DNA of 64,000 nt from Mytilus edulis (Eukaryota): contig NC_092345.1 of assembly GCF_963676685.1 (NCBI RefSeq), forward strand, positions 50,716,001-50,780,000. The letters are read 5' to 3'. Shown piece by piece: positions 5,421 to 60,335 of the stretch. The notes under the pieces are model-generated. The model did not search any database, was not told the DNA's origin, and worked only from the letters and a program-made list of their open reading frames with translations. A program made the translations under genes and the position numbers. Position 1 is the stretch's first letter. Each line of letters opens with the position of its first letter.

Positions 5421-7651
5421 TTCTCATAATAAATGCCATAATGTCAAAATATTGAGTTAAAATAAATGGGCTTAACGCTCGGTTTCTCTCGTTTTGATTC
5501 ATGACATAATAGCAATAAAAGAACATAGTTACAGAACTGTAAATGCATGTATATACGTGGTAATTGTAAAACTATTTTTATGTAATTCGTAAATAATTAA
5601 TTTATTGTGTCTAAAAAATCGAAATTTGTAACATCTTACCCGCTAGCAATTTGATATGATCTATGTAAGTGCAAAGTGTTTTCTCACCCAGGGGAAACAA
5701 TTACATAATTGAATAGCCTGAGTTGTTTTTTTTACGTCGACTGGGAAAATTTAAAATAAATAAATAAAAACAAACATATAGGGGATACGTACTTTCTTTA
5801 GCAATTTTTTTATTGTAATGTACGATACTTCATTGAAAAATCTTAAAAAGAGGTCAGACTAAAACAGAAAAATGAGACGTGTCCCAAAAATACAAATAGA
5901 AATGTATATAGTGTTGACAGTGGAAAACTACGTATCAGGGCTGTACACTGCGCTTAATTAAGTTAAGATTTAATCCGAACGAACGGATCTTTCTGCATAT
6001 GTCCTACGATAAATTAGTACTACCAGAAGTCCACTAGACTAGTAAGTAATGGACTTCTGCTACTACGTATATAAGTCATTTGTCTAGTAATCAAAATACT
6101 TTATCTTGAAGTGGTTTTATGCATATCAGCCATGAAGATCACCGTAAGTAAACGGACTTAAAAAATAATCAATAATTTAATCAGTATTTTATTAATAGGC
6201 ATATTTATGAATACGGAGTTATTCTAAATTGTGACTTTAAATGAAATTTAGTTTTTAGACTTTGAACCTTTTTTTTTAATACTTTCTTACATGGATTTGT
6301 AAAGAAATTTAGTTAAGATAAGGCTATGCATATTGGATGCATTTTGTATTGTAAAAATGTAAGTACATCGCCATTTGAAGGTTAGGTATGTAATAATTCA
6401 ATAAACTAAAATCGAAATATATTTGTACACTTTAAAAAGCTTTCAAAGACATGCAATATAAGGCAATATTCTAGTAATCACATTTTCTGCAGTAAAATTA
6501 CATGGGAAAATAACGGAAACGGAAATAAAAATGGCAAATTATTAAGAATAATTGCATCCACTATCTTCATGCAGAGCATGATTGTTTATTTCAAATTCAA
6601 GTACTTTGAAGTATGTTTCTTTCAGCCGAGTACTCTCTATAATATCCACATAGAAATTATTACTGAAGTAGAAACTGTGTCAATGTGGAAAGCATATCTT
6701 ACTGTAGGATAGGACCAACGCAACCATTGTTATTGTTATAAAGAGGTGTCTTTTTCTTTTGCCAACTATTTCTTTTTTTAGTTTTGAATACATTTTTTTT
6801 CAATTACATACTGGTATGTACATAAAACTATCAGTATTTAATTTATATGATATTATATCAAATAATAACAATAACGGTAGCGTTTATTATTACATGTATA
6901 AATACGTAATTTAGGACATTAAATATATAAATGTTAACACAAGAGAATGGGATATATCAAATTAAACTTTAAATCAAATAAGATTTTTTTTTAAAATGTC
7001 TCAATTTGAGGGGATGATCATGCAATGATATTCTGATGTCTCACTAACATGTTATTATATTTCTTCTCCTTCATACATGATAAGTTTATCCCATTTTTAT
7101 GGTGTATTTATCTTTGTTTCGTAAAGCCTTTTCTCGACATGTGTCCAAATACAAAAAAAAAGATATATATATATTTGTATATATAGTGTCTCATAAGCCT
7201 ATCTAGGCTGGGTATTTGTCTTATTTTAATAGTAGACGTAGAAAATGTCAATGTTGCGAAAGGAATAAAATACAAAGTTATAGAATTAATCAAGCATCTT
7301 GTTTGGTTATATGTCTGACTTTGTGAGAAATAACCATTGACCAAGATCTTCATTGTTATGAATAACACAGGTACACATTTGACAAAAAAGATATTATCTG
7401 ACATTATATCATTCGAATGTCAAATTTGCGGATGTTTTGAATATAAATATATAGGTAGCTGAATTAAGTCAAGTTGTTGATTTTAAACTTTTGAATTTAT
7501 TTAATCACCATGCCTTTATATTCGAAGATAACAAAATGACAACAAAGATATCGATTTTGTTTTAATTTTGAACGAACATTAGAAACCTCGTGCGTCTTTT
7601 ACGGTTTCCGGTTTGCTACTACCTAAATATTCTGGGATTTTGCGTATTTAA

Positions 7652-8196
7652 GGAGGCTCGCGGGAACAAAAATTTCAGCAAAAAATTAAACATTTGTTTT
7701 TTCATTACAAATTTTATGTATTACACTATTAGTTATTACTTTATGATATGGTACAAAAATCACCAAAAAAAATAGCTTCGGCTTGGCCACAGGTGACTTT
7801 TAAAATGTTTATATCATTGAAAAAGCTCCAAGTTATCTTCATTTGGTGCAAAAATGCCATTTTTTGGCATTAAAATTGAAATATCTTTTTTTCAACTAAT
7901 CGGTGACCTATATGTTTTATTACTGATTTCAAATAAGATATACATAAAGTAAATAATTGTAAAATTTAAGCGATTTCTGTAATTTCGTTCTTTTTTAATT
8001 TCGATTAGTTCAACAGAAAAAAAGGACATTAACAAAAATGTATGCTTCTTTCGGAGGCAGATTGTGAGCTTAAATGAACAGTGACCCCATTTTTTTATTT
8101 CATTTTTCTATTAAGTATATGATAAAGTTCATTTATAAAAAAATATAGCGAAAACCTATATTAGAAAAAAAAAATGATTTATACCCGCGAGCCCCC
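7652..8196. mobile_element. MITE with TTAA target duplication (Kolobok-like)
   Basis: TTAA|GGAGGCTCGCGGG ... CCCGCGAGCCCCC|TTAA. Confidence 0.8.
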
Positions 8197-8663
8197 TTAA
8201 TGTCTTTAGTGTAAATAATGTTGTAGACATTGTTTTGGTTATGGTTTATTCTGTAACACTAAAAAAGACATATTTTTAACCGAATAAATCAATTATTACA
8301 CTCTTTGTGGTTTCGAGTCGAAACCGTTTCGTGGAAGAAAGCTCGCACCGAGCGCAAAAAGTTAGTAAATGTTTGATTTCCGACAATCAGTTATATTTAC
8401 TCGATCCTACCATGGAAGTATTATTTAAATATTACTTCCATGCTCCTACTCTAACGAGAACAAACAATTAAGGAGTAAGAGCAGATACCGGCCTGCTTTT
8501 GATCAATTAGAAAGATTTGTTGATAGGAGCCAGTACGGCGAAAGTGAGAAAAGCAATCGAGTTGAGATGACCTATGATAATCTGTTTATCGCTATTTTAC
8601 CTATGACGACGTTGTTATTTTCAGACCATTTCATTGAAAACGGGTACGTGCGCCCTTATGATT

Positions 8664-9392
8664 CTGGCGTCACACATCAGCGTATGGATCCGACGTACGC
8701 CGGGCGTGGTAAAAAATTATGTACGCTGCCAATACGCTAGTAATTTTGGATGCATTCAACTTGTCAATCATATCTGTATCGCGTATACAACGTGCCCTAA
8801 ATGTGTCTCAAACTTATCTGTAGCGCGTTTAACGCGCTTGTGGCGTATGTATAACGTGCGTGTAGCGTACAGGTATACGCTAGACACACGCTTGAGCTGG
8901 ATGAAAATTTTTATGCTGCATAAAAATTTCCTGGAGTTGTAGCGTTCACCAAGCGTATACCTTTGTATTTCGACGTACTTCAAACTTATGCAACGCGAGT
9001 TTAACGATTGCTTAGCGTTCCTCTGGCGTGCAACTAACGTATACCGACTTTGTCAATTTTCTCTGTACGTTTGGTGCACGCCGGTCTACACGCCGATTTG
9101 TGACGCCGGCATTACAAACACACCCGCATACGCTATAGTTAATTAAAGTCGAACGATCTTGAAACGTATACAACGTGCCCTAAACGTGTCTCAAACTTAT
9201 CTGTAGTGTTTTCAACGCGCTTGTAGCGTATTTATTACGTGCGTGTAGCGTACAGGTATACGCTTGACAAACGCTTGTGCTAGATGACAATTTTTTATAG
9301 CGTTCTGGCGTGCAACTAACGTATACGGACTTTGTCAATTTTCTCTGTACGTCTGGTGCACGCCGGTCTATACTCCAATGTGTGACGCCGGC
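8664..9392. mobile_element. TIR element with a duplicated right half, inserted into another repeat
   Basis: GGCGTCACAC left end; GTGACGCCGGC right ends at about 9110 and 9392. The host repeat has an uninterrupted copy at about 27600-27893. Confidence 0.65.
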
Positions 9393-11559
9393 ATAGCTTC
9401 TAACGATAAATTTTCATATCACTCTACTGCGCTGAGAAAGGTAATTATCAGAAAGTAAGATCAAAGTAAAATTTCGTAAAATAGCGATGATAAATGTTTT
9501 TTAGCTGTTACCTTGCGAGTTAGATATTTAAATATATGACAAGAAGTCTCAGTCTAGTACCACCAATCGACGAGTTCTTAAAATGCATGCAATATTTACA
9601 ACATTAAATATTACACCATAAGAGTCGCTTGAAAACTTTATAACAAAAGAGATGATTTCAGTTTTCCTATTGTGAACTGTCCGGTTCTTTATAACAATAT
9701 TTCAAAAGCAACATGTCAAAAGCGCCTACATATTGCTTCCTACAAGAATAGAGGAAGTATACCGAAATAATTTCATAATATAAGAAGATAATAAACATTT
9801 AAAACCTCTGCCTGTGAAAAAAAGTGGACACAATTATAGAGATCTTTTTAAAAAAAAAAAGAGTAAAATATATGAATATCGACGTAATAACGAAGGCGAA
9901 AAAAAGTGTTCTTCATGTCAAACGTTCAAAAGCATCCAAACTTTCAATTCATGATAGAAACAAACTCGTTATATATTTAATTAACGCTCATTACAGGTTC
10001 ATTGAATTTGAAATCACTTTGCATACTTGTAACCATGGTGTTGTCTTGGTTTTTTCTCCGACTTGTGGTTATTTTGCTTCATTGGTATCTTCCCACAAAT
10101 TATGAAGAAGACATAAAGCAAAATATTGGGTTTTTTTTTATCAGATAACAAAGGACAGAAAATAGAACGGTTTGACCACTGTTTCTTTCATTTTGAACAA
10201 TAACCAGGCTTCCCTGAGGATAAATAACGTATGACAATAAAAATACATGTATCTACTAGTAATATGTAATAGTATCAATTTTTAACGTAAATTGTTAATT
10301 ATTTATATAATTGTCTCTCGAACTCGTAATTCTTTACGTTTTACCTAATTTAATATTATAAATGTACATATGAAACGGTTTCACACCAGGGGAGACAATT
10401 ACAAATTTGAATAACCCGTGTTTAAAGTAGGGGACTTGTTATTAAAAGATTTGGTGGACTGGATGTGTTATCTATTCTCGTGATATATTTGATACAACTA
10501 TTTTACGAAAGAGGCTAGAGTGTAAAATAATATATGAAGTAATTGGTATCCTGCAAAAAAATAGTGTGCAAAGTACTGCGTACCAGAAATCCGATGTAAG
10601 TAATTATTGATTTCATTATAATGAATATTTTAATCATTTATAAATATATATTTTAACACATTGCTATTTAAAGTTGTGACTAAAAACAATATTAAGATAA
10701 GAATTTCTAACGGTGGGATTTTAAACCTTGACTTAATTAAATTGTACATATGTATATAAATGTGGTTATAACATTGTAGCACGTTTGCACTTAAATAACA
10801 AGATATCTTATTGAATTAACGGTGCAAATTTTTTAAGTAAAAATCTAAATAATTATGTTAAGTTGATAAACCTATAAAAACATACATTATTTTATCAAAA
10901 GCAATACACATTGCATTGTTGTATGCTCACGTTAACTTTAATTGATTTAGTCTTAGTTGCATGAGTGCATGAGTTTGTTTTATTAGTTGTTATTGGGTTT
11001 GAAGTATAGCTAATAGATCTCAGATCTGTACTTAGTGTCTTTTTGTCGTTGGGATGTGCAAGTACCCGACCACGTCCACTCTGCGTTTTTTGTTAGATGT
11101 ATTATAGTTTGTATCAATCTGATAACTTAAGTCTTTTTTAACTGATTTTTATAGTTCGTTCTTATGTTGTATTGTTACACCACTGTCACAGGTTAGGGGG
11201 AATTTGGATTTCGCTAACATGTTTAACCCAGCCACATTTGTGTGTCTGTTCTAAGTCAGGAGCCTGTAACTCAGTACTTGTCGTTTAGTTGCTGTGTTGC
11301 TTATTTGTTTTTCGTCTAATTTTTGTACAAAAATGTACAAAAATTAGAAGCTGTTAGATCTCTTGTTGTTTGAAGTGTTTTATGTTTGTTTGTTTGGTGT
11401 TGTTTTTTTTTAGTTGACTATGCAGTATGGGCATTGTTCATAATTGAAGGCCGTATGTGAACCTGTAGTTGTTAGTTTCTGTGCCATTTGGTCTTTTGTG
11501 AAGAACTGTCTCATTGGCAATCATTCCACATCTTCTTTTATATGCATACATTTTATGAT

Positions 11560-12012
11560 GGAGAATTGCTGCTCCCAAGAAAGCTATTAAACCAAGATGG
11601 TGAAGTTGAACTACTCCCTTCGTAAATTTTACAGACGCCATCACGAGTTGGTTGACCGTTATAAAATAACTGTTTCACATATGATATCGGATATGTTACT
11701 TATGTCGTAACTACAATACCCTACCCTTTTCATGAATGTGACCTACCGAATTTACCGGATTTGTAATAACATAAGCAACACGACGTATGCCTGATGTGGA
11801 GCAGGATCTGCTTACCCTTCTCGAGTAGCTGAGACCCCCCCCCCCCCCCCCAAGTTTTTGGTGGGGTTCATGTTGCTTAGTCTTTAGTTTTCTATGTTGT
11901 GTCTTTTGTACTATTATTTATCTGTTTGTCATTTTATTTTTAGCCATGGCGTTGTCAGTTTATTTTCAATCTATGAGTTTGACTCTCTCTCTGATATCTT
12001 TCGACCCCTTTT
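11560..12012 (+). mobile_element. Diverged 3' end of a Naiad-type Penelope-like element
   Basis: Similar to 29412-29910 and to the reverse complement of 47201-47700. Confidence 0.75.
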
Positions 12013-15000
12013 CATGCAGAATCAGTTTCATGATGACTAGGTTTAGCCGAAATTAACCTTGATTCTGCAAATCTTTAAAAAAAAAATAATATTTTTATGC
12101 TAAATCATTAGACATGGTCGCCTTCTTTGTTATTAGATAATATACAGATAATAATAAAATTATCTATCTATCTATCTATACAGATTGTGATTATTGTTTA
12201 AAGTGTCATATCTTGATCTTACAAATAAATACATCAAGTTCAATACACAAAAGAGATAAAACAAAGATCAATACCCAGTCTTTATCATAGACTTACAAGA
12301 CACTAAATTTACAATAAAACACATTAAAAATATATAAAATTTATAAATCATACACTAACATGCTGAGTTGGTTTAGGATAGCTCACGTGATAACATGCCG
12401 TGAAACATTATTCTGGCTCTGAGCCGACCAGTCTTTGTTCTTACTCATGAATACCACGTGCTTACCAGAATAGAAGCAAAATAATAGTCTTGCGAATCTT
12501 TTAAAATGCATGGAATGAGCTTTGATTGCAATAAGCACGGTTTTAAGCATTTGGCAAAATTGTATGACGATTTTAGTTATGTTTGATTTTTTTCTTAAAA
12601 AAAATGTTTTGTTGTTTTATTGATTTCATGATTGCTAGATCCATGTAGAATAATATATATTTTTTAAGAAAATGTATATTTGCCTTCCATATATTTTTTC
12701 TTGTTTCATGCATCGTCTTATTCGTGGACCAACGCATATAACTTTGTTTGTTATGTGTTAGTCGCATATTTGTCTTTTGATGTTTGTCTTTTATTTCCAT
12801 GGCGTTGTCAGTTTATTTCCGATTAACGAGTTTGAATGTCCCTTTTGTATCTCTTACCTGTCTTTTTAAAAACGTGTTCTTCTTATCATGAACATTTCGA
12901 TATATCCCATATAGAGAAAGTTCAACTTACTGACAGACGCCGACAATGTTAGTCGCTTGTTCACTCACTTGATACAATTTAGACATATGTGTTGCTAAAT
13001 TTTGATCGTAAAAACCTTTTATCGCCTTCCTTCTTCCTGGAGCGTTTTTGCTGAGTTCATTTAATAACCCAAATCTTTAGTGTTTTGTGGACTCATCTTG
13101 TCTATCCATCTTTATATTTGGTCATACACGATCTGGACAAGATTTTTTTTATCTTTTAAACAGACACCGTCAGAAGACATATTATACACGCAATATATCT
13201 TTGGCACTGAGAAGGATATTCTGTGAACAGGAGAATGTTGAATAAAGCAGTGTTTAAAAAATTTGAGATTTAAAAGCATTTTACCCTGTTTCTCTAACAT
13301 ACCTAAAAGTATGCATTATTCGAAATACTAAGGATTTCCTTATCCCATGCACATATTACCTTAGTGATATTTGGCACAACCTTTTCGAATTTCGGGTCCT
13401 CAATGCTCTTCAACTTCATAATTGTTTGGCTTTTTATAAATTATGTTGATATGAGCGTCATTTTTTTGTAGACGAAATGCGCTTCTGGCGCATCAAATTA
13501 TAAGCCTGATACCTTTGATAATTAAAGAAATTTCAACACTAAACTTGATAAACATATACCCTATTTGAAGGCCAATGTCGATAAATAAATTTGATTGTTA
13601 AAATCATATTGTCTGGCTTTATTTCATTGTCCGTCATGTGTTGTTAATTTCTTTCGTAAAATGGTTGATTGACTTTATCAACTTTTGACACGGATGGTCC
13701 GACAATTGATATTTTAATCGAGTTTTACTTATCCTAAACCTAATCTATGAAAACTTGATTAATCTATACATGGAAGTAATATTTAAATTCAATATTACTT
13801 CCATGATCTATACAAGATTTAGATTTATTTCCTCAGACGGTGTATTTCAATTGTTGGTCTAAACCTGATTAGTTTTCTGTTATTTAACGGGGATATATTA
13901 AGTCCTATATTCAGGATCCTTTTCGTTAGTACAACACACTTTTGAGTGTTATCAAACACCTGAGACTACTATAACACATGTATTTAATATAGTAGTCTCA
14001 GCAAATACTGACTATATACATGAACCGGTATATCTATGTATTAAAGTTTAGAATTTTTAAAAACCCTATTTCATTTTCCATCTTAATCATTTTAATGTTG
14101 CAAATTCTCATAAACATAATTCTATTTAAAATTTAATACTAGTATATACACCAGTCGTTATTATGAGACACTATCGTAGCCCGAGACCACAATTAATTCC
14201 TATATCAGTTCTTGTCGCATTAAAAAAATTACCATTTGTTTTTTGTCTATTTTTTTGTGTGTTTAATGTACAGTGCAAATCCAGAAGTATATCCAACTTT
14301 CAGAAAAATTGCATACGAATTTGGTCAATACACATCCATACCCCCATAGGCAAGTCAAGAGATGTTCCGAAAAGTGTAAATATTACCTTTTTGCACCTGG
14401 CCTAATCACTCTTTCCATATCTAAATCAGTTAAAATGAAACGTCAAAAAGTTTATTTCAATTCTCTTCTTTCATTTACACCCCAGAAAAACTAAGAAATG
14501 TATGAGAAATGGAAAGAAAAGAAATAAAGAAAAAACACACTATTATAATTAAAGGGAACTATATATTCATACTTTTGGCCAATGTTTTATTTAAGAACTG
14601 AGACATTTGAGACATTTGAGACATTTGAGATCAGAGTTACATAACATAAAATGTCAATATTTAAAGAGATACAACATGAATGGGAGTGCAACCTAATGAC
14701 ACACAAAAACCGAGACATATCGGTTCAACACTTTGACATTTTAATTTGTCTCTTCGTCTTAAAGAAACCCATATATCTATCAGATTAACATTTGAAGGTT
14801 ACAGTTTTATAATTAAAATAACGAGGTATCGATAAGTCCTTTAACATAATATTTTCCTTTGGTTTATTTAAGTATACGTGGACGAATGAATAGAATATCT
14901 CAAAATAATGCCAAAATATTATACGTAATGAAAATTAGTGTGGTTTTAGAATATCTTTATTTAATAGAATCACGTTTTTAATTTTGTATTACGATTAACG

Positions 15001-31300: not shown

Positions 31301-34300
31301 TTATGTCTCAATGTCTCACCCCCTTCCCCAACTATACCTCTAGCCAATGTAAAATAAACAATCACGCAGCAATAGACAGTTAAACAACTCAGCCTAAAAG
31401 AAGTCCGATTACGATGTTATAATAAGTAAAAGAAGAAACAAAGCAAAATGACAATGATACATAAATAATCAAAGGAGAAGAACATAACCCATACCAATTT
31501 TCGTGGGTTATTTAAAACTTTCAATTTTCGCTGATATTTTGTTTCTAGTTTTGCCATATTATGCATATACTGTTCGTGAGTCGTTTAACATTTAATTTCA
31601 TTGTTTGCCTGTACCACCGACGGAAACCACTAATAATATGGAATCAACAATTTTTTTATTCTATTTCTACGTAAAAAAAAAACTCCTCTGCAATTATCTT
31701 ATATTTAAAAAAGAGGTATTATTGATTGTGTTTAGTTAAATAAAACATTATTGAATACGGTGCTAGGAGAAATTCCTAATTTCAAAATCATGAAAGGCAA
31801 ACCACTGCTCAAGAATTTGAGAGTCAGTTTATACGGATTGACACGAAGAAAAAAATCGGTACAAGTTTAAGAACAATCAAATCAACCCGTTTTCCATTGG
31901 TAGCTTTTTTTATTTGTATCATATCCTACAAAAGGAAAAGAACAAATTATAAGGAACTTTAAATTCTTCAAATATATACGTAAATGCAAAGTTCTTTTCA
32001 AAGGAAACATGTTTTTATTTTAAGGTATTTATCTCAACTGTACTCAAATCCAGAATGGCCAAAGAAATCCCCAAAAGAATTACAGCCACAGTTAAAAGAC
32101 AATATAGATTCTAGTCCTTTCCTGTTGCTTGGACCACGGAGCATGTATAAATATGTTAGTAATATTATAGAAAAACGACGTCAAGGTCAACCAGTCAGTT
32201 TCACTGATTTCTTTGGACACCTTGTTGGTGAAACTTTGCTACATGAGGTAAGGGTTATATATATGTTGATATACTTGATTAGACAATAACCGTGTACTCG
32301 GAAAATATTACTCAAAATACAGGTTCAATGATGATTCTTTTTTATTTAGGGAATTACAAAGATTAAACTTTATTTTTCCAACCTTATTAACGTTCTCTCT
32401 GGATATTGTCTTTTTTTTTAAATATTAGAAGTGTGTTCAATTGTTAATCTGAATTATCTTCATGTGAAATGCTATTTTCAAAAATGTGTTTGCAAATACC
32501 TACAAATGTACCATAAACTATGTTGACATATTTTAGAGAATGAATGCCAAACTTACAGACCAGAGAGATATAATAGAAACAGGAGAGGTGCCATTTCCAC
32601 TATACACATGTTTACATGTAAAGAGACAAGTCTCTGCTATGATTTTCCATGGTGAGGTTTACATTTTTTTTTTATAAGTATAAAATGAGAAATACAAATA
32701 CAAATTTGCTTAGTTGCCAAAATGTATTTGTCCTTACGATGTTAGTTTTTTTTACTTTAATAATGACGTCAAAAACAGATTAACAAAGAGTTAATTAAAA
32801 TAACTGGGTTTCAAAATAAATACAAAAACAGAAAATCGTGTAAATTTCCTTATAGTTAGATTTTTAACGTAAAGCGTGTGTTCATTAATAAAAATACAAA
32901 TCTTTAAGCAAAACATAATATAGAGATTCAACAAGATGTATCAACATTTTATTCATAGCACAAGTATTTAGTTACTTTCTATTTCTCAATCTAATGCATG
33001 GATATATCATTTCCTTGATATGTTATTGAGAGAAGGAAACTACTCGAAACTGAGAATACTGATTTTATGTTTAGATATAGAGTGACAAATAAAAAAAATA
33101 AGATGTTTTTCTTGAATTTTGTATAAATTCAGCATTGGTTTTTGTTAACGTTATGTAAAATGTGTTTTATTTCTTAAAAAGTTAAATAACAAAAATGACG
33201 AACGCCGAGGAAAATTCAAAACGAAAAGATCCTACTCAAATGACAAAATCAAAACAAATGGATAACAACTGAATGAATATTGATAAATATAATTTTTTTT
33301 CAGAATGGATGGAATTTTCCGCTTATGAAATTGGTTTACCAAAATATGGAACATTTATGAAAACTGAACATTTTGGTAGTAAATATTTCATGGGACAACT
33401 AGTACGAAAACATCCAGAACCCCCACTTCATTTCTTACAAGGTAAGAAGACACATACGCTTGTTTTTGTTGATTGCACTAGAACATACGGAACATTCACG
33501 CCAAATTAATTAACTTGCATATGTTTAATTGGTGACATAATCGTTTTTCTTGTCCTGTTCTGAAAAACGATTATGTCACCAATTAAACATATGCATATTT
33601 ATTTTGACTTCGAGCTATCCATTTTTGGCTCTTAGTTCTTAATCATAAATGCAACATGATTTGGAAAGAAGCTGCAAATACCAAGTCTTCAGTCATTGTT
33701 TAACCAGACTTGAAACCAAATCCTGACCTGAATCTCTGGACAAGCACTGTTCCATAGATCACCCTAATCGCTCTAAAACAACATTAAAAATATATGATTT
33801 TCTATTAAACATATGTAACAGCTTCTTGTTTGAAACAGCTTTACATATCAAATTCTGATTACTTAGTTTTGGTTTATTTTACTCTTATTTTTTTTTCTGG
33901 TAATGCTACTAATAAATCAGCACTTAATAGATTGTTAAAAAATATAAGTATATTAACATATAGATACACAGATTTTTCAAAAATAAATATTTCAAGCGAA
34001 CAATATAAACTCCTTGGAACTGTATTGCAAGTATAACAGACAAACTTTTTACGAATATGTTTATGCTTCAGGTATTTGGGGGAGTGCATTTTGTATTCAA
34101 CTAAAACGACTCCTGAAAGATGACAAGAAAGTAATGAATGAATGTCATTCATCTTTTGATGAAAGGGAAGAAATGGGTGAGTTCATCTTTTTATATTCAA
34201 GATTCAGACAATACCTATTTGAAGAATTTTGGAGCATTTTTTGTCTTCTCATGATTCATAAGATTATTTAAACTACAACATCACGAATATTTATGAAACT

Positions 34301-37300: not shown

Positions 37301-38251
37301 TGCAGAACACTGGGCTCACAAGAACAATGTACCGTTTCCACCAATAGACGTCAATATAATGGAAAAGGAAGGAATAAAAGAGTGTTATGTGTTTGAAGAT
37401 CGGAAAGATCCTAAATGTCCTACCATCTTACATTTTGTTTTGTCAAATATAAATTTCAGGAATGAGACACAACCAGGTAATGTTTATGTTGGTATTTTTT
37501 TGCAATTGATAGATTGTTTGTTAGTGGTTAACACGTCATAAAAGAGAGGCGAAATATCTAGAAGTACATTCAAACTCACAAGTTGAAAATAAACTGACAA
37601 CGCATTGGTTGAAAGAAAGAAAAACAGACATAAAACATAGAAAAATTTAAGAGCAATGACAATTGGAAAAAACGACTTTTGTGTAGTTCGGTCAAAGTGT
37701 ATACTTATGATGTACCGTTGATGATTTCAAAGATATTTTTAAAAGCTGTATGAAACATAGTACTGAAGTTATTAAAATACTACAATACTAAAAAGTTCAA
37801 GAATTAATATATGGTGTGGATATACTGTACCATAATTGTATTACTGTCCTGTTAAATGCTCTTGATGTTTTCATTTTATCAAAACGGTGATTTCTTTTCA
37901 ATATTTCATAAAATGTGTATTTCAATTTTAGATGTACCAAGACAAACAGATGAAGAAAAAGAGTTTGGTGATTTCCAACTATTTGACGACCCAAAACGTC
38001 CATATTCGACTTTCAACTTTAATTATTCTCATCTGGCGTTTGAAAGGATAACTCAATTAACTGAATATAACACTCTGCGCTTTAAAAATTTAATAATAGA
38101 CAAGGTTCGAGAATGCGTGAGAAAATATCAGGATTCATCCATTCGAAGACCAATTAAACTACAAGATATTAAGAAATTAAGACTTGGAGCAAAGGATAAG
38201 GAGGATAGATTAAAACAGTTTGTCGAATCTTTTGATTCCCCTGATTCATGA
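19320..38251 (+). CDS. PLA2G4A: Cytosolic phospholipase A2 (group IVA-like), 16 coding exons, about 756 aa
   Basis: Exons join in phase at GT-AG sites: 19320-19336, 24056-24080, 24851-24932, 25808-25954, 26865-26980, 29072-29109, 30486-30618, 30962-31098, 32025-32247, 32537-32651, 33304-33441, 34072-34176, 35443-35751, 36792-36970, 37290-37476, 37932-38251 (total 2271 nt). Shows C2 domain (DTPDP, NPVWDETF, DANY), GSGGGFRAM, nucleophile GLSGS, catalytic DGGLTFN and PFSP; colinear with vertebrate cPLA2-alpha from memory. Confidence 0.95.
21010..21385. repeat. High-copy interspersed repeat (other copies near 11000-11540, 25140-25230, 61740-61980)
   Basis: Shared AAGTCAGGAGCCTGTAA and CATTGGCAATCATACCACATCTT motifs. 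Confidence 0.7.
24056..24080 (+). CDS. PLA2G4A: cPLA2 25-nt micro-exon (FDPFQVFE)
   Basis: ttccag|CTTCGACCCTTTTCAGGTTTTTGAG|gtgagt. Confidence 0.85.
24496..24539 (-). ncRNA. Minimal type I hammerhead ribozyme (retroelement-associated)
   Basis: Minus strand reads GCGUCA CUGAUGA GUCU uuugu AGAC GAAAC gcac GUC UGGCGU: intact core, stems I-III and a GUC cleavage triplet. Confidence 0.8.
24851..24932 (+). CDS. PLA2G4A: cPLA2 exon, C2 domain start
   Basis: atag|VSHYPCTILYIKVVRGYNITKGWAADL|gtaagt. Confidence 0.92.
25808..25954 (+). CDS. PLA2G4A: cPLA2 exon, C2 domain
   Basis: DTPDPFVSLYIKTSPNCLQKTKTVDNEVNPVWDETFQFYLDPRDNNEL, bounded by AG and GT. Confidence 0.95.
26865..26980 (+). CDS. PLA2G4A: cPLA2 exon, C2 domain
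   Basis: EITLIDANYTIDETIGMCIISLKDLPYAEKETKTLQFNK. Confidence 0.95.
27070..27580. repeat. Interspersed repeat family (fragments also near 22660, 26395, 33195, 36625)
   Basis: Recurrent AATACYGAACTCCRAGGAAAATTCAAAACG...CACATCAAACGAAT motif. Confidence 0.7.
29072..29109 (+). CDS. PLA2G4A: cPLA2 38-nt exon, end of C2 domain
   Basis: ttacag|TSEVDIEMWAET|gtatga; phases 0 and 2 fit both neighbours. Confidence 0.88.
29412..29910 (+). mobile_element. Recent 3' fragment of a Naiad-type Penelope-like element in a cPLA2 intron
   Basis: Near-identical reverse complement of 47201-47698; encodes RT C-terminus ...LRKFYGRHHELVDRY. Confidence 0.88.
30486..30618 (+). CDS. PLA2G4A: cPLA2 exon, start of catalytic domain
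   Basis: VTPDLRFSLTLCEEERTFLAQRKRVIFESMKKQLGSDAPKSSRE. Confidence 0.95.
30962..31098 (+). CDS. PLA2G4A: cPLA2 exon with oxyanion loop and nucleophile Ser
   Basis: VPTIGVLGSGGGFRAMTAYSGVFSALVDSKILDMATYVCGLSGSAW. Confidence 0.97.
32025..32247 (+). CDS. PLA2G4A: cPLA2 exon
   Basis: YLSQLYSNPEWP...GQPVSFTDFFGHLVGETLLHE. Confidence 0.95.
32537..32651 (+). CDS. PLA2G4A: cPLA2 exon
   Basis: RMNAKLTDQRDIIETGEVPFPLYTCLHVKRQVSAMIFH. Confidence 0.95.
33304..33441 (+). CDS. PLA2G4A: cPLA2 exon
   Basis: EWMEFSAYEIGLPKYGTFMKTEHFGSKYFMGQLVRKHPEPPLHFLQ. Confidence 0.96.
34072..34176 (+). CDS. PLA2G4A: cPLA2 exon
   Basis: GIWGSAFCIQLKRLLKDDKKVMNECHSSFDEREEM. Confidence 0.93.
35443..35751 (+). CDS. PLA2G4A: cPLA2 exon, acidic loop and MAPK-site region
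   Basis: AKELLDDMG...EGRAAKVHSFMRGLSLYKVYPFSPFTS. Confidence 0.93.
36792..36970 (+). CDS. PLA2G4A: cPLA2 exon with catalytic Asp
   Basis: KKLYVVDGGLTFNSPYPLLLRPQRQVDLILSFDFSARPTDDTPPFK. Confidence 0.97.
37007..37135. repeat. Three copies of a 42-bp intronic tandem repeat (also in the duplicate near 44069-44197)
   Basis: TAAGCCTAGGTAGCATAAAAGGAAAGAATCATATAAAGAATT unit. Confidence 0.9.
37290..37476 (+). CDS. PLA2G4A: cPLA2 exon
   Basis: EIKIAEHWAHKNNVPFPPID...KECYVF...CPTILHFVLSNINFR. Confidence 0.96.
37932..38251 (+). CDS. PLA2G4A: cPLA2 last coding exon
   Basis: VPRQTDEEKEFGDFQLFDDPKRPYSTFNFNY... ending in TGA at 38249-38251. Confidence 0.96.
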
Positions 38252-41449: not shown

Positions 41450-41806
41450 TTAAGTATTTTCTTCTTTTTTCTCCAAAATATTAGCAATATTACTATGACC
41501 ATTCCGTTCTGCATACATAAGAGCTGTCCATCCATATATATCATATTTGCTGCTATCACAAGTATTTTCGATGAGAAATCTAACAAAAGACTCTCGGTCA
41601 CATTCTACTACACTCCTTTTTCTGATTGAATTTCTGCGGTACTTACATGTTTCTATTAATGGCGTGCTACCAAAATAGTTGATGCAGTTAACCCCTTTGC
41701 CTTTTGAAATTAGATCTGTAGCCAGCGGAAACCTTTCGTGTCGTATAGCCTCGAAGATTGCTCCAATTCTCTCATTTTCTTTGTCTTGACTGATTCCGGT
41801 TCCCAT
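41450..41806 (-). CDS. Small intronless ankyrin-repeat protein (118 aa)
   Basis: True ATG start. Ankyrin motifs IFEAIRHERFPLATDLISKG, GVNCINYFGSTPLIETC and DIYGWTALMYAERNGHSNIANIL. Confidence 0.75.
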   Translation of the reverse strand: MGTGISQDKENERIGAIFEAIRHERFPLATDLISKGKGVNCINYFGSTPLIETCKYRRNSIRKRSVVECDRESFVRFLIENTCDSSKYDIYGWTALMYAERNGHSNIANILEKKEENT

Positions 41807-41930
41807 TTTTCAAAAGTAATAATGTCCTTCCTTGTTCAATGATAAAGCAATAGTATTTCCAATATTATTATCAATCTTATTTATACAAGTTTGCTATCTA
41901 CGTCATTGATGACACTACGCAAAATTACGT

Positions 41931-43833: not shown

Positions 43834-46635
43834 ATCTTTGTTTGTATTTTCAGATCAGTTTGATGGCATTTTTGAACTTTTTCCAACCACAATGAAAAAG
43901 CTCTACGTTGTTGATGGGGGATTGACATTCAATTCGCCATACCCGTTGTTACTAAGGCCCCAGAGACAAGTGGATCTTATCTTGTCGTTTGATTTTAGTG
44001 CAAGACCTACTGATGATACACCACCATTTAAGGTAATTGTTAAAACACATTAACCAATTTGCTTTGTTTAAGCCTAGGTAGCATAAAAGGAAAGAATCAC
44101 ATAAAGAATTGTAAGCCTAGGTAGCATAAAAGGAAAGTATCATATAAAGAATTTTAAGCCTAGGTAGCATAAAAGGAAAGAATCATATCAAGAATTTTAA
44201 GAATTTATCTGTTTTTCATTAAATGATATGAAGTTCTTCTAGAAGACATTTACTTGTCAAAACAAAGTATCAAGCACTAAATAAGCAGTTCATAAAACCA
44301 AAGAAAGGCAAAACATGTATAAATGCTACAAACGCCAATTTGTAATTTGTAGGAAATCAAGATTGCAGAACACTGGGCTCACAAGAACAATGTACCGTTT
44401 CCACCAATAGACGTCAATATAATGGAAAAGGAAGGAATAAAAGAGTGTTATGTGTTTGAAGATCGGAAAGATACTTAATGTCCTACCATCTTACATTTTG
44501 TTTTGTCAAATATAAATTTCAGGAATGAGACACAACCAGGTAATGTTTATGTTGGTATTTTTTGCAATTGATAGATTGTTTGCTAGTGGTTAACATGTCA
44601 TAAAAGAGAGGCGAAATATCTAGAAGTACATTCAAACTCACAAGTTGAAAATAAACTGACAACACATTGGTTGAAAGAAAGAAAAACAGACATAGAAAAT
44701 TTAAGAGCAATGACAAATAGAAAAAAAACCTTTTGTGTTGTTCGGTCAAAGTGTATACTTATGATGTGCCGTTGATGATTTCAAAGATATTTTTAAAAGC
44801 TGTATGAAACATAGTACTGAAGTTATTAAAATACTACAATACTAAAAAGATCAAGAATTAATATATGGTGTGGATATACTCTTCAATTTTAGATGTACCA
44901 AGACAAACAGATGAAGAAAAAGAGTTTGGTGATTTCCAACTATTTGACGACCCAAAACGACCACATTCGACTTTCAACTTTAATTATTCTCATCTGGCGT
45001 TTGAAAGGATAACTCAATTAACTGAATATAACACTCTGCGCTTTAAAAATCTAATAATGGACAAGGTTCGAGAATGCGTGAGAAAATATCAGGATTCATC
45101 CATTCGAAGACCAATTAAACTACAAGATATTAAGAAATTAAGATTAGGGGCAAAGGATAAGGAGGATAGATTAAAACAGTTTGTCGAGTTTTTTGATACC
45201 CCTGATCCATGATTGATAAACTGAGTGCAAGTTTTTGAACATTGATTGCAAACTTAAGAAGATAGTTGGGTGCTTATGTGTGACAATATGATGGCTTAAA
45301 ATATATATATAGATATATATTATATATATTTATATTTATATTTATGATTATATATTCTCAAAAATGTTTATTAAATTGAATAAAATAAATACAGGAGAAT
45401 ATCTATTAAGAAAAACATGACCTTGTAAAAGGTTGTTCAATTGATCACTGGGTTGCATATATATAACATGTTTACATGCAGACCAGGTAGTGACATGTAG
45501 CAATTAGTTAAAACACGGGAAATATGTGTATTCTTTGACCATTAATCTCCAGGTTGGTCAAAACATGTCAATTAAAGTCAACTTAATAGATATTCATCCC
45601 TGTATCTTTTGATTTAAGACTATAATTGTCAAATTAATAGAAACCTTGACACTGTTTATATTCTGTATATATACTGATGTATTTTACTGTATAGAGGAGA
45701 CCGTCCGTTATGGACACTGGTCCAGACGGGCTTTAATAAACTGCTATTCAAAATAACCATGTGTTGTGTTACATATGTTGGATTTTTGCGCAGTTTTTGA
45801 ACATTGATTGCAAGCATAAGAAGATAGTTAGGTGCTTATGTTGGTTTTTTCAAACACGAAATGTTACGATTGTGGGTAAGAGAAAAGTTGTATTTTCTTA
45901 CAACATAATACATGCAGTACCTATACCGTGGAACTGAAAATGAACAGTGTGCTTAAAATAAGAACTGAAGATCATATGCTATGTTCAGGCGTACCTTTAA
46001 ATGTTCTACAGACGTTACGTAAACGATTGGACATGGTTATAAATTGAACAGTTTGAAATACATTAGAAATAGTTGTAATTATTTTTTACATATCTTCATT
46101 TTGTTTTCGTTACCTATGTTATATTTTTACATGTCTGGTTTTTTTTTGTTTTCGTTACCCATGTCATATTTTTACATGTCTACATTTTGGTTCTCTACCC
46201 ATATCATTGTTGATGTTTAGTCAACCATTTATTAGAAACCGACCTTGTGTAATATCATTGTTCGTACACCAAAATGAAAATAACGTGACGTCAATGGCTC
46301 AATTTCCATTGTTTAGAACGTTTTACACCAATCACAACGTTTTGGTGTACGCTTTTGAAAATATTACCCAGGATGCATTAGATTCTGAAACGGGTGTCAT
46401 TGATAGAAATGTTTATGTTAAACTAATTTGTTCTTCATTATTTATTCTATAAGTGAATTCATTTTATCTGTTTTTCTTATATTTGTTTAATAATTATCTC
46501 TTGTTTTTTAAATAAATTTATCTAAAATAAATCTTGAAGTTGATCGTGAAAGAGCCCTTTCAAATGTTGTCAGCAACATTTGACATGACATGAAAATGCC
46601 AATTTGTGACTTTTTACAGAGATTAACAAAATGCT
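43834..46635 (+). pseudogene. Partial tandem duplicate of the cPLA2 3' end (exon copies 43854-44032, 44353-44539, 44893-45212, plus introns and 3' UTR)
   Basis: Near-identical to about 36772-39800. CCT AAA has become ACT TAA, a premature stop at 44476-44478. No upstream exons are present. Confidence 0.92.
45279..45773 (+). mobile_element. Solo LTR (495 bp)
   Basis: TGTGACA...TGTTACA termini, 4-bp TATG target duplication, AATAAA at 45735; absent from the paralogous 3' UTR near 38310. Confidence 0.8.
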
Positions 46636-49340: not shown

Positions 49341-50939
49341 AGAAAGGGTAAGCAGATCCTGGTCTAAATGTGGTCGTGTTGCTCGTGTAAGTACAAATCA
49401 TTTGATTATTATAATTCCGATTCGGTGTGTCACATTCGAAGGAAAGAGGACAGAATGAGATTGTTGTTACGAAAATTGGAACATAACTGTCGTCATCTGT
49501 CAAACAGATAAACCGCGGTCAATAAACTAAAAATAAGCGTCCGTTAATTTTTGAACTTGAAACATGAAATTCATGTTTGGTCCATCTGAAAAATAAGCGC
49601 AACCAGTTATAAATATCCATTGGACAAAACAACTGCATTGGTAACCATGTTAACTACAAACTTAATTTTAACGTAAAGCGCATATGTCCTCTATGATATA
49701 TTTTTCGTTTACCTTTAACGTATTTTTTATTATTAAAGACATACGAAAGCCTATAAGCACTGGTGGTAAGCGGATGGTCGTAACTTAAAATTACGACCAT
49801 CCAAAAACGGGAGACAACTCTGGAGGTCAGTTTTTCTTTTCTGATTTTCGTGCAGTAAAAGGTTCATTTGAGCTAAACCGCTTGTCTCGTACATACTAAT
49901 CGTTACTGTGTTGATATTGAAATAAACTTTTATACATAAAATCATTCTAATTTCCGTAAAGTAGTCATTCAGAAATTCGATCATGATGGTCGTAACTAAA
50001 ACAACAAAAATGTTGAGGATGGTCATAACGTAAAATTGTGAAGGTCGTAACACTTTATTAAAAAGGACTGAATAAAGCAAGTCAAGAGTGTATATTATAT
50101 GATATATTTATGAAGATTTTTTTTATTTTTACATACAACGTGTATTAAAGAATTTCGGTCCGTGTAACACTTATGAATTCAAAATTTTACAAAGTTTTCA
50201 AATATTAGTGTTTTTTTTTAAATTTTGATTTAAGTTTAAAAATAGAAAAATCACATTTTTTTTTTAATATTTTGGACCGAATAGTGTTCGTCAATAGTTT
50301 TAAACGTGTCCTTTATTATATGAATATATTATATGATATATAATATAAGAAGTTGTTTTCACCAAATAATAAAAACTGAAAGGGGTGAAGAGAGAGGGTA
50401 CGTACCATGTTAAGTGCGAAACGGAAGATAATTGTATAATCTTATTTTATCAGCTGGTATTTATCCCACCAGCTGGAAGAATGTTTTTATTGTTTTATTC
50501 CATAAGTCTGGAGATAAAGAAAACATATGCAGTTATAGAGGTATTTCTATTTTAAACTGTCTATCAAAATTATATAGCTCTATTTAAATAAAAGACTTAT
50601 TAATAAAGCATTATGAATATAAGTTTTCCAGTCATCAATTTGGATTTCGTTCAAATCATAGAACGTCTGATAGCATATTTATTTTAAAAACTCTTGTCTC
50701 CAAATACTTGGGGAAAAAATAGACAAAGCTTGTTTTGTAGATTTGCATGGTGCTTTTGACTCTATTTGGCATAATGGCCTGTTGTATAAATTGATAAATG
50801 ATGGTATTGGTGTGAAGTTTCATACTATTTTGAAAAAATATGTATAGCTTATCACAGTCCGCACTGAAGATTAATACTGAACACTCTGTTTTCCAATTAT
50901 TAGAGGTGTAAGACAAGGGGACAGTTGAAGTCCTACTGT

Positions 50940-53285: not shown

Positions 53286-55396
53286 TTAATTGTTACATTA
53301 CTGATTTGCATTCAGTTTTTGGTGAAACTTGTAACCCTCCAGTTCTTGATACTTCAAGTATCCAAACTTTCAGTTACGAAGATGATCCAGTGTTACTGTC
53401 TGAGACACACCAGTGGCTTCAAAACGCGTTAGACAAACTAAATAAATATTGCATTAAATGGCAGTTGAGTGTAAATACAAACAAGACTAAAATTCTAGTT
53501 TTTCAGAATATTTATAAACAATCTTCACCTCTCTTGTTCAATGATAAATTTTTGACTGAAGTTAAGGATTTTTCTAGGTAATATTATTAACTATAGAGGA
53601 ATTTTACAAAAACTACTGAAGAGCTGTTTAAAAAAGGTATTAAAGTTTTATTTTTATTGAGAAAACCAACGTCCAATTTAAATTTTGTTTCCACTACTAA
53701 TTTGTCATGTAAATTATTTGATACACTTATAAGACATATTTCGACAAACAACTCTGAAATTTGGTTTATGGATAATGTTCAGTCAGCTTTTAAGGCATTT
53801 AATAGAGCTGCTGAAATACTTTTTGTAATACTCTTGCTTTTAATAGCAGAAAAGTATCACTTTAAGAGGAATCATTCTATATTTTCTAAATAGCTGCTAG
53901 ATCGGAATTAGGGAGATTTACTTTGAACTCTTATATAAAAACTCAAACACTCATGTATTTTTATAAAATAAACTTTAATGATATGTTAATCATCTGGTTA
54001 AAGAATCTCTACAAACAAACATAAATTTACATTCCACAGGAATTTATTCTTGGTACTCATTTGCAGATACAATTTTTAAAGATATGAAAATAAACCCAGG
54101 AAATTACTCTAATTTTAATGTACCTTTTAAACAATTGAAAAAAGTGTTAAATGTAATATTGAAAAGTGTGTTTCAGAGGAATATGAACAAACTACTTTAA
54201 ATAAACTTTCAAAATTGGATTCCTCATCCAAACTTTGTCTTTATGGGAATTAAAAAACTAATTGTCAGTCTGAGGAACATTTGAATTGCAATAATTTTAT
54301 TCATAGGCAGTTACTCTCATATTTATATCATACCCGTGTTTTAAGCGACACGCACATTGGCCATGCAGGTCATAAATTAATTTGTTGAATGAAATCAAAT
54401 CAGTAAGTACTGATGGATACCGTAGAATTTTCCACGGGAGTTTTGAGCGAGGATTTCTTGACATGGGTTGTAATTCTGAATCCACGGGGTCGCAAAGAAT
54501 CTTGTGTTAGCTTCGAACGTAGGAGGTTGTTGATACCTAATCTACGCTACTATCCGCTATACACCCTGAACTTAAGAATGGAATCAAATACATTAGATAT
54601 ATGAGTATAGCGTGTAGATAGAACTATTTGTTTCAACTCGTTGGGTTCAGTGAGTTTATTAACATGGTTTCGTGCACAGTACTTTAAAATACTTCCATAA
54701 AAGTCCGCTTTAAGTACTCGCGTAACAGTCACCTTTAAGTGCATACGAAACAGTTTGTTGTCTCTTTGACACATTCCCCATTTCCGAAACGGGTTGTTGT
54801 CTCTTTGACACATTCCCCATTTCCATTCTCAATTTTATTAATTCCATATTGGCATTTTGATGAAAATGTGCATATGGGCTATTTTATACTGCATGTGCTT
54901 TTTTTAAAACTGAGGTCGAGATTTCGGATATTTGCTTAACTTTCAGATTTGTGGACGCATTTTTCCTTACGATAAATATACATAACTTTTTTTGTTATAA
55001 GATAAGTTACGACCATCACACATTTTAAATTACGACCATCATGCTTGAATTTTTGAATGACTATTTTACGAAAATTGGAATTATTTTATGTATCAAACTT
55101 GGTTTCAATATCAACGCACTCACGATAAGTGTATATGTGACAAGCAGTTTGGATCAAATAAACCTTTTACTGTACAAAAATCGGAAAAGAAAAACTGATC
55201 CCTAGAGTTGTCTCCCATTTTCGGATGGTCGTAACTTTAAGTTACGACCATCCGCTTACCACCAGTGATTAGGGTATATAACTATCGCGTAATTACGAGA
55301 AAACTATCTCGTAATAACAAGATAAATTACACATATATATATATATAGAGAGAGATATATAGATATTCCGGGGCACGTGATGAAGCGCTAGTTTTT

Positions 55397-56009: not shown

Positions 56010-56395
56010 TTTAATCTCGTAATAACGAGATAGTTTTCTCGTAATAATGAGACACACAACTTCTTATCTCGTAAATATGCAATAGTTTTCTCGTAATTAC
56101 GCGATGATTATCTCGTAATTAAGATATTAAAAACTTCTTATCTTGTAATTACGCGATGATTATCTCATTATTACGAGATCAAAATCTTATCTCGTAATTA
56201 CGTGATAGTTTTCTCGTAATTACGCGATAATTATCTCGTAATTACGCGATAAGTATCTTGTAATTACGAGATATAACAATGATTATCTCGTAGTTATCGC
56301 AATAACTAGATAATTATAGTTTTCTCGTAATTATCGCAATAACGAGGTAATTATCGCGTAATTGCGCGATAGTTTTCTCGTAATTACGAGATAAA
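56010..56395. repeat. Array of short self-complementary units (TCTCGTAATTACGCGA); also 55280-55330
   Basis: Directly visible repeats of about 20 bp. Confidence 0.85.
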
Positions 56396-60069: not shown

Positions 60070-60335
60070 TTAAGCATTTTTCAATTTGCCATAAAATATT
60101 GAAAAATGAAAAATGCTAAAACGTGGAGCATTTTTCAATTTGCCTTTAAAAATTGAAAAATGAAAAATGCTCCAACGTGGAGCATTTTTCAATTTGCCTT
60201 CAAAAATCAAAAAATGAAAAATGCTCAAACGTGGAGCATTTTTCAATTTGCCTTAAAAAATGGAAAAATGAAAAATGCTCCAATGTGGAGCATTTTTCAA
60301 TTTGCTTTGAAATATTGAAAAATGAAAAATGTTGA
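60070..60335. repeat. 57-bp minisatellite (about 4.5 units)
   Basis: GAAAAATGAAAAATGCTCAAACGTGGAGCATTTTTCAATTTGCC unit. Confidence 0.92.

Follow-up and report, generated by a model that had tools for sequence, protein, structure and literature searches.

The 64-kb stretch of mussel DNA analyzed here (hereafter the window) contains four short palindromes, each bordered by a 7-bp direct repeat, and raises the question of how they arose. An earlier note took them for excision scars, or else ultra-short MITEs, of up to three P-like transposon families. Our analysis favors the scar half of this proposal, which is much better supported than the MITE half, and we put at roughly 88% the probability that the four palindromes are donor-site scars left by cut-and-paste excision of P-superfamily elements. 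Long elements with the same termini, a peak in scar length and the transposase of one family (D) all support this reading; these were the points at which the earlier note had expected a wrong reading to fail.

Palindromes, flanks and alleles in the window

The window was scanned for palindromes with an arm of at least 10 and an adjoining 7-bp repeat with at most one mismatch. Six matches were recovered, the four palindromes (Table 1) and two within a 54-bp tandem array at 60073-60331; the same scan of 100 dinucleotide shuffles of the window gave a mean of 0.04 matches and a maximum of 1. The four palindromes and their 7-bp duplications are confirmed as real. At a repeat length of 6 or 8 bp, the flank mismatches listed in Table 1 become 4-8. 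Coordinates, arms and flanks agree with those first described except for one base: the palindrome at 8411-8442 lies where it was placed, but its left arm carries a substitution that had been overlooked. The window does hold three families, and a search of its 64 kb with the ends of seven families (at most 2 mismatches in 15 nt) revealed no further scar.

Table 1. Palindromes of the window and the target duplications that flank them.
Scar	Position	Family	Length (bp)	Composition	Arm	Left copy (7 bp)	Right copy (7 bp)	Mismatches between copies
1	6024..6059	C	36		10	6017..6023	6060..6066	1
2	8411..8442	A	32	19 nt + 13 nt, one substitution	10	8404..8410	8443..8449	1
3	13769..13805	A	37	19 nt + 18 nt	15	13762..13768	13806..13812	0 (perfect)
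4	13960..14001	D	42	19 nt + 9-nt filler + 14 nt	14	13953..13959	14002..14008	1

Scar 3 exactly joins the outermost 19 nt on the left of an A parent (L082 type) to its outermost 18 nt on the right. Scar 1 can be read as derived from the 35-bp scar common in family C by a duplication of 4 nt and the loss of 3 nt.

We next turned to the alleles present at these sites. Runs with a share near 0.4, which are probably repeat-only matches, were kept out of the evidence unless aligned. At 13762-13805 an exact empty allele with a single target copy was found in 4 of 4 runs from 4 studies, as a skip of 44 that equals 37+7. A scar-free allele of scar 4 was present in runs X2 and X5, and the scar at 6024-6059 was present in X1, X15 and X16. 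The comparison of orthologous sites suggested earlier thus yielded two of the three expected alleles: among the 7 runs aligned there were empty and scar alleles only, and no site at which a full element stood against a scar. The empty allele fits a tiny insertion and the scar reading equally well. A paralogous empty site for the 8411 scar was considered and ruled out, the surrounding DNA being single-copy, and none of the contig pieces listed spans this scar.

Genome-wide families and their long parents

Genome-wide, short A/B palindromes numbered 464, compared to 2 for a reversed control; D ends numbered 2026 versus 9, and C ends 177 versus 54. A 7-bp duplication with at most one mismatch flanked 42 of 50 A/B, 12 of 16 C, 26 of 31 D, 9 of 10 E and 12 of 14 G scars, and an 8-bp duplication was found at none of the 50 A/B, none of the 16 C and one of the 31 D scars. 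Scar lengths peaked at 31-39 bp. A peak near 32-36 bp had been anticipated, and one exists, but the values for B (37) and D (35-39) exceed it. The scars were diverse in sequence (40 types among 50 A/B, 27 among 31 D and 15 among 16 C), and a uniform interior, as in a MITE, was not seen. The A/B junctions comprised blunt joins, short overlaps and fillers, and the genome also contains one-sided repair products of 69-224 bp. The target profile R-T-n-W-n-A-Y was identical for 83 scars and 19 full elements.

There is a hint that sites of different families cluster: 3 of 36 A/B sites lay within 2 kb of another family's site (0.21 expected), as did 1 of 76 in the comparison of D with other families (0.26 expected); at 20-50 kb nothing clear emerged for A/B or D. 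Two candidate neighbors were set aside. At L088 a scar lies 134 bp from a full A copy with the same right-end variant, which says little for a local hop because that variant is common (14 of 15 right ends, in a 92%-identity subfamily). At L323 the neighbor of the scar turned out to be a 184-bp one-sided repair product rather than a full element.

Long elements with matching termini exist for all three window families, as the earlier note had predicted. Parents of A measure 1.3-2.4 kb, those of B 1.4-1.9 kb, the C parent 1.9 kb (L229 7918-9846) and the D parents 6.2, 11.5 and 15.0 kb; full copies of all seven families, A to G, are flanked by a 7-bp duplication. The D parents of 11.5 and 15 kb encode a P-superfamily transposase with a GTP-binding insertion (PF21787, E 1e-26; PF21788, E 1e-19), and the sole match in a comparison with the PDB was the fly P transposase 6p5a (E 9e-10). 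PF21787 scored above its cut-off in D, E, F and G parents. PF21788 was predicted in D, F and G (E 1e-18 to 4e-20) and was not detected in the E pieces scanned. Acidic motifs 1 and 2 could be aligned in D, E, F and G and motif 3 in E, F and G; neither of the two D copies showed the third catalytic residue. Parents of the transposase-bearing lineage have two genes and span 8-15 kb. No THAP match was detected in the long and upstream open reading frames of D, E, F and G, a search that small unspliced exons could escape; in E, a weak motif resembling zf-AD was seen (E 0.0045).

For the remaining window families the parents recovered were non-coding. Among 40 of the 47 PF21787 loci, with 26 of the locus neighborhoods extended on one or both sides, there was no coding parent with A, B or C ends, and tblastn with the transposases and second open reading frames found no coding trace in 8 non-autonomous copies. 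The ends of A, B and C resemble those of E and G, and target profile and scar rule are shared; P-type enzymes may move A, B and C too. The expectation of a THAP/P transposase in the parents was therefore borne out for D as regards the transposase, while A and C offered only non-coding parents and THAP appeared in no family. CA..TG ends, which the note had ascribed to P-like families in general, are present in A, B, C, E and G. F has them at one end only, its other end starting with CT as D does, yet both D and F carry a P-type transposase.

Where the arms stop

Terminal repeats of these elements are ~27-37 bp long, and the arms of the scars end well inside them, at a position specific to the family: 18 nt in E and at the right end of A, 19 at the left end of A and in C and D, and 20 in B. 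Exact double joins were 18+18 in E, 19+18 in A, 19+19 in D, 19+20 in F and 20+20 in B and G, such that asymmetric ends gave asymmetric scars (A, F). In B, 23 of 34 scars were exactly 20+20 and none was 21+21; in D, 18 of 50 (the first 50 of 106) were 19+19 and none was 20+20. Fourteen A sides stopped at 19 and 6 E sides at 18, with none going further. A minority ran on past the stop, by 2-3 nt in 4 of 34 B and 3 of 30 G cases, and in 3 of 50 D cases. In addition, the reading was 21 for 12 B sides and 20 for 5 D sides, in most cases at junctions for which the opposite arm could supply the base. The tails thus surpass both the fly limit of 17 nt and the figure of about 16-18 bp per end given in the earlier note, which does not hold: they reach 18-20 nt.

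The stop sits immediately ahead of an inner copy of bases 3-7 of the terminus. In all 7 ends tested, the best match to this copy fell at the stop actually observed, with ties at other offsets in 2, and none of 200000 shuffles matched all four families, in a test performed after the pattern had been noticed. The rule was also used in advance and predicted 20 for G and 19 for F. Both predictions held: 22 of 30 G sides that reach nucleotide 20 stop there, although 15 of these 22 come from 35-bp scars that also allow a 19+16 reading, and 13 of 13 F sides that reach nucleotide 19 do not continue into the parent's GG. Moreover, the letters of tip and inner copy differ between families but change in concert. 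In four further P-like families, those with CACAG ends, support for the rule is weak: offsets 15-17 give 3-4 of 5 matches.

We propose that a full element formerly stood at each of the four sites, that the enzyme would leave behind two single-stranded end pieces of 18-20 nt, depending on the family, and that end joining would seal both tails between the flanking 7-bp target copies. The arm stop would mark the nick on the non-transferred strand. Its placement just before the inner copy of bases 3-7 would follow from a need for the freed 5' end to pair again, close to the tip, with the transferred strand, as seen in the fly structure; the loop between tip and inner copy could absorb 17 to 20 nt.

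Could the palindromes have arisen in another way? Ultra-short MITEs, generated once from long parents and then mobilized as 24-50-bp units, would be consistent with the empty alleles that hold a single target copy, and the short forms of D, F and G are far commoner than long ends. Identical types also recur (37-bp B, 38-bp D, 36-bp F, 35-bp G), but these are blunt joins or short overlaps of both tails. One 3-nt filler is common to three D scars, which also suits MITEs. Elsewhere, filler-bearing scars that recur have common flanks too and were therefore copied within larger repeats. The diversity of the A/B and D scars described above argues against such units, as does the requirement that seven families should each have contracted to a comparable endpoint. 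The short forms also lack the inner half of the terminal repeat contacted by the fly enzyme (PMC7776569, section 8). We consider a MITE origin improbable. An even smaller chance attaches to spontaneous deletion of the middle of the element between its terminal repeats, with no nick by a transposase. Long inverted repeats can promote deletions via a hairpin or cruciform, and the minority of scars that continue beyond the usual stop would suit this origin. However, both arms stop at the same base inside the repeats in 23 of 34 B and 18 of 50 D scars, the asymmetric scars of A and F mirror asymmetric ends, and slippage would not account for why the stop goes with an inner copy of the tip.

A further alternative accepts the scars and competes with the inner-copy rule only. 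Here the nick distance would be fixed, the spread of 18-20 would reflect later trimming, fill-in and small indels at the ends, and the inner copy would be a by-product of purine-rich ends. Many junctions are indeed ambiguous by one base, a minority run on, the ends of A, B, E and G are related and therefore not independent, and the shuffle test postdates sight of the pattern. Weighed against the differing exact double joins, the joint change of tip and inner copy, and the two predictions that held, a fixed nick appears unlikely, though it deserves serious consideration. Returning to the inner-copy rule, we think it probable that the ends of P-superfamily elements encode their own cut register: the non-transferred strand would be nicked just before the inner copy of bases 3-7, the stagger would slide between 17 and 20 as the spacer varies, and co-variation of tip and inner copy would preserve the strand-swap helix of the fly cryo-EM structure. 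On this reading, mollusc genomes would contain thousands of scars that make the stagger of any family readable and predictable, here for two-gene P elements of 8-15 kb with no detectable THAP domain.

Significance and comparison with known systems

P excision is a known mechanism; the many matching scars of this genome point to a probable variant of it, with a longer, family-specific stagger (18-20 nt instead of 17) that can be predicted from the end sequence. In the literature searched, with most subscription journals and the Repbase reports outside its scope, neither scars of this kind nor a stagger of variable length turned up. Our data suggest that a long stagger was retained in a mollusc lineage, with a length that varies by family and follows a simple sequence rule. 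The scars could serve as natural evidence for the unusual re-paired DNA of the fly structure, as a way to classify orphan elements, and as a large record of how long, non-matching overhangs are end-joined in the germ line of an animal whose genetics is little developed. Some very short palindromic repeats, of a kind that repeat-finding programs would overlook or label MITEs, would be explained by them as well, and the inner-copy rule is open to direct experiment.

Like other MITEs derived from DNA transposons, such as BuT5 (PMC3698922), the 1.3-1.9-kb A, B and C elements are non-coding partners; by contrast, the 24-50-bp palindromes are heterogeneous at the center and lack the inner terminal repeat. 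Pdre/THAP9 of zebrafish resembles the mussel system in having a P-type transposase outside insects and non-autonomous derivatives, but differs in its 13-bp terminal repeats and 8-bp duplications; deletions are reported at its donor sites, and the portion of the account consulted gives no stagger length (PMC10983969). Galileo and 1360, P-superfamily elements of Drosophila, share 7-bp target duplications with the mussel families, and the R-T-n-W-n-A-Y profile fits the GTAGTAC consensus of Galileo, with scar 1 lying in that word on the minus strand. The mussel elements differ from both in their short terminal repeats and two-gene layout, and the sections consulted of these accounts give neither excision scars nor stagger (PMC2775673, PMC3698922).

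The fly P element is another close counterpart. In the fly, donor junctions comprise blunt joins, overlaps of 1-3 nt and fillers (PMC2895639 Tables 1-3), and the mussel junctions are heterogeneous products of end joining of the same classes. In both systems the two target copies are retained, the palindromic remnant consists of the two end tails (PMC2895639; PMC7776569), and the transposase has a split RNase H domain with a GTP-binding insertion (PMC7776569). The three bases after the stop in A, B, E and G are AGG, and AGG stands at that place in the fly too (guide sequence of PMC11368186). Taking the fly pairing register as given in a review, the inner-copy rule appears to fit the strand-swap helix of the fly structure. 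Unlike the fly element, with its 17-nt tails and 8-bp duplication, the mussel families have tails of 18-20 nt according to family and a duplication of 7 bp; some of their ends start with CT, and their parents are up to 15 kb long, contain a second gene and yielded no THAP match. In the mussel, moreover, the scars are abundant in a natural genome.

Four palindromes in the window and their families

Re-reading the window sequence bore out the four palindromes described in the earlier note and the 7-bp direct repeats around them, which carry 1, 1, 0 and 1 mismatches for scars 1 to 4; flanks compared at 6 and 8 bp gave no match. A scan of the 64-kb window (G000:C2:50716001-50780000) for arms of at least 10 bp with a 7-bp repeat returned these four and two matches in a 54-bp tandem array (60073-60331), against a mean of 0.04 such palindromes in 100 local dinucleotide shuffles. 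The four scars lie within 8 kb (6017-14008). Scar 2 occupies a short single-copy stretch with repeats on either side (8300-8520), and about 15 bp before it stands a TCAGTT word, which we take to resemble an initiator motif.

Features of the window and genome (19+18 denotes nt kept from the left and right element ends)
Feature	Position	Description
Scar 1	6024-6059	family C; readable as the 35-bp type plus two small indels
Scar 2	8411-8442	family A, 19+13, one base changed
Scar 3	13769-13805	left 19 + right 18 of an A parent, every letter identical
Scar 4	13960-14001	family D, 19 + 9 filler + 14
Palindrome	33516-33595	80 bp, 34-bp perfect arms, flanking duplication not evident
Two related palindromes	49772-49802, 55222-55254	31-33 bp, probably parts of one repeat family
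Tandem arrays with internal palindromes	60073-60331, 56062-56289	54-bp and 22-bp units
ORF pieces	41453-41809 (-); 37856-38248 and 44862-45209 (+)	ankyrin-repeat-like piece; duplicated piece about 7 kb apart
Family F element	L093 343 to L243, G000:C9 18.79-18.80 Mb	perfect 7-bp duplication
8.15-kb elements	L105, L106/L252, L123/L253, L124, L130; e.g. G000:C5 65.21-65.22 Mb	

Exact pattern searches of the 1.37-Gb genome placed these palindromes in families. The arms of the palindromes at 8411 and 13769 matched 464 short palindromes, whereas reversing the pattern gave 2; the 464 are of two kinds, A and B. Counts for the other two arms are of ends, not scars: 177 against 54 in the control for the 6024 arm (family C) and 2026 against 9 for the 13960 arm (family D). 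We read 50 listed A/B scars (minus one spurious row where a fetched piece ended), 16 from C (8 chosen for their closed look), 31 from D (13 of the 20 extra loci chosen as paired ends) and 10 from a further family, E. Duplications of 7 bp, allowing one mismatch, flanked 42/50, 12/16, 26/31 and 9/10, respectively. The shortest measured 24 bp and the longest 53 bp; lengths peaked at 31-32 and 37 bp for A/B, 35 bp for C and 35-39 bp for D. Scars of different families often lie 0.2-3 kb apart (on contig C1 of G000, for example at 2.706-2.710, 3.691, 53.329 and 57.915 Mb). In a partial test, 3 of 36 A/B sites fell within 2 kb of another family's site, versus 0.21 expected, and the same clustering was not significant for D scars; the clusters are possibly insertion hot spots.

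We also compared alleles in sequencing runs. At 13762-13805, contigs from 4/4 runs (four studies, three organism labels) skip 44 bases, exactly the scar plus one target copy; the scar 3 allele is also present in run X16, which may be close to the source. At 13960, X2 and X5 lack the scar, with skips of 54, and of 52 with 2 bases between, versus 49 expected; X16 carries it and X4 has no coverage there. Scars 3 and 4 are therefore insertions relative to the ancestral site, which fits a scar or a tiny element alike. Scar 1 is spanned gap-free in X1, X15 and X16. Of the empty, full and footprint alleles that the earlier note proposed to compare, empty and scar alleles were found, and a full-length element was not seen at the scar sites in the 7 runs compared of 24 listed.

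Parent elements and transposases

Every family has long elements with matching ends and 7-bp duplications. Parents measure 1.3-2.4 kb in A (38 near-full matches in 40 scored of 223 candidates), 1.4-1.9 kb in B and 1.9 kb in C; D has a 6.2-kb parent besides its transposase-bearing copies. We searched with Pfam PF21787 and fetched 40 of the 47 P-type transposase matches. At two of these 40 loci the P-type transposase sits in a D element, of 15,038 bp at one and 11,535 bp at the other, and both elements have perfect 7-bp duplications. The D protein matches PF21787 (E 1e-26) and, for the GTP-binding insertion, PF21788 (E 1e-19), and its sole match among solved structures is the fly P transposase; neither copy yielded its last catalytic exon. 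Families E (7,850 bp), G (9.8-14.2 kb) and F (11,842 bp) likewise have transposase-bearing elements with 7-bp duplications; in F the two ends differ, CA beginning one (19-nt tail) and CT the other (20-nt tail). No coding parent for A, B or C was present among the 40 of 47 loci fetched. The earlier expectation of long parents encoding a P transposase thus held for D, and as to long elements for all families; for A and C, no transposase-bearing parent was found among the loci fetched. Because their ends resemble those of E and G, and because they share the target profile and the scar rule described below, we infer that A, B and C belong to the P superfamily.

E (locus L096), D (L097), F (L093) and G (L099) each have a second ORF, convergent and 350-430 aa long. 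These ORFs are homologous (24-40% identity) and matched no clear Pfam family; upstream of them in D, F and G lies a C2H2 finger. No THAP domain was detected in D, E, F or G. Both D copies carry a GDSL/SGNH hydrolase ORF. Other P-like elements (L304-L305, L306-L307, L256-L257) have CACAG ends, span 11-16 kb and combine long terminal repeats with duplications of 7 or 8 bp. A separate 8.15-kb group has perfect terminal repeats of about 600 bp and 8-bp duplications; it encodes a P-like RNase H transposase, which is faced by a 1091-aa ORF matching Pif1 helicase and PHD. This family looks young, since ten loci score equally and the transposase is 99.9-100% identical in the five checked; our literature search found nothing on such a P-like/Pif1 family.

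Where the arms stop

The parents' terminal repeats extend about 27-37 bp, and scar arms end inside them; counts drawn from search listings are by eye. Among all 34 B scars with both arms of at least 20, 23 are exact 20+20 joins and none is 21+21; the rest have C/G fillers (3/34), an A next (4/34) or 2-3 further parent bases (4/34). Among the first 50 of 106 D scars with both arms of at least 18, exact joins were 19+19 in 18, 19+18 in 14, 18+18 in 4 and 20+20 in none, with a single C in 1, fillers in 13 and parent bases kept past 19 in 3. In the A/B scars read, 14 A sides reach 19 and none goes beyond; of the 19 listed E sides that reach 18, 16 stop there, 3 have one extra A and none has two. 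The 16 C scars gave five sides at 19 and one at 21. One-sided products of 69-224 bp join a short tail to a long piece of the opposite end.

In A to E, the five bases past the stop copy terminal bases 3-7 in 4-5 of 5 positions. The best inner-copy match at offsets 10-30 coincided with the observed stop in 7/7 ends, tied with other offsets in two. No shuffle in 200,000 fitted four families together, a figure to be read knowing that the pattern was seen before the test and that A, B and E are related. We then predicted stops at 20 for G and 19 for F before their scars were read. Among 30 non-parent G rows reaching base 20 (from the first 100 of 3058 ends), 22 stop at 20, five have one extra A and three extend by another 2-3; a 35-bp class, readable also as 19+16, makes up 15 of the 22. 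Joins in G included one 20+20 and one 20+7+20, with no 19+19 among the rows listed. In the first 100 of 703 F rows, 13 reach base 19, none of which continues into the parent GG, and two have exact 19+20 joins. The second F end, located after the prediction, has a 5/5 inner copy at 20. Terminal tip and inner copy co-vary between families. Arms thus probably stop just before an inner copy of terminal bases 3-7.

Proposed excision mechanism and comparison with the fly P element

We consider the palindromes to be excision scars, with a probability of about 0.88. The element would be excised leaving 18-20-nt tails on the chromosome, and end joining would seal both tails. According to PMC7776569, fly P is cut at the tip of its 3' end and 17 bases inside on the other strand. 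The structure shows the transferred strand bulging out in a loop, with a disordered stretch from -14 to -18, before it folds back and base-pairs with the non-transferred strand in the 5' part of the latter; transposition depends on this pairing. The nick may precede the inner copy because the latter would have to stand in for top-strand bases removed close to the tip, and a flexible loop could let tail length vary. The fly P end fits this rule loosely: the six bases after position 17 give three matches and two G-T wobbles to bases 3-8 (PMC11368186).

In the literature searched, mostly outside subscription journals, we found neither mollusc scars of this kind nor a stagger of varying length described. 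Galileo and 1360 (PMC2775673, PMC3698922) share the 7-bp duplication and target profile of the mussel scars. Fly P donor sites, in Tables 1-3 of PMC2895639, have 17-nt tails joined bluntly, via short overlaps or with fillers, the same junction classes as here. Fly tails are capped at 17 nt, a limit that the mussel tails exceed. The mussel scars most likely reflect a variant of the known fly P excision mechanism, with longer tails.
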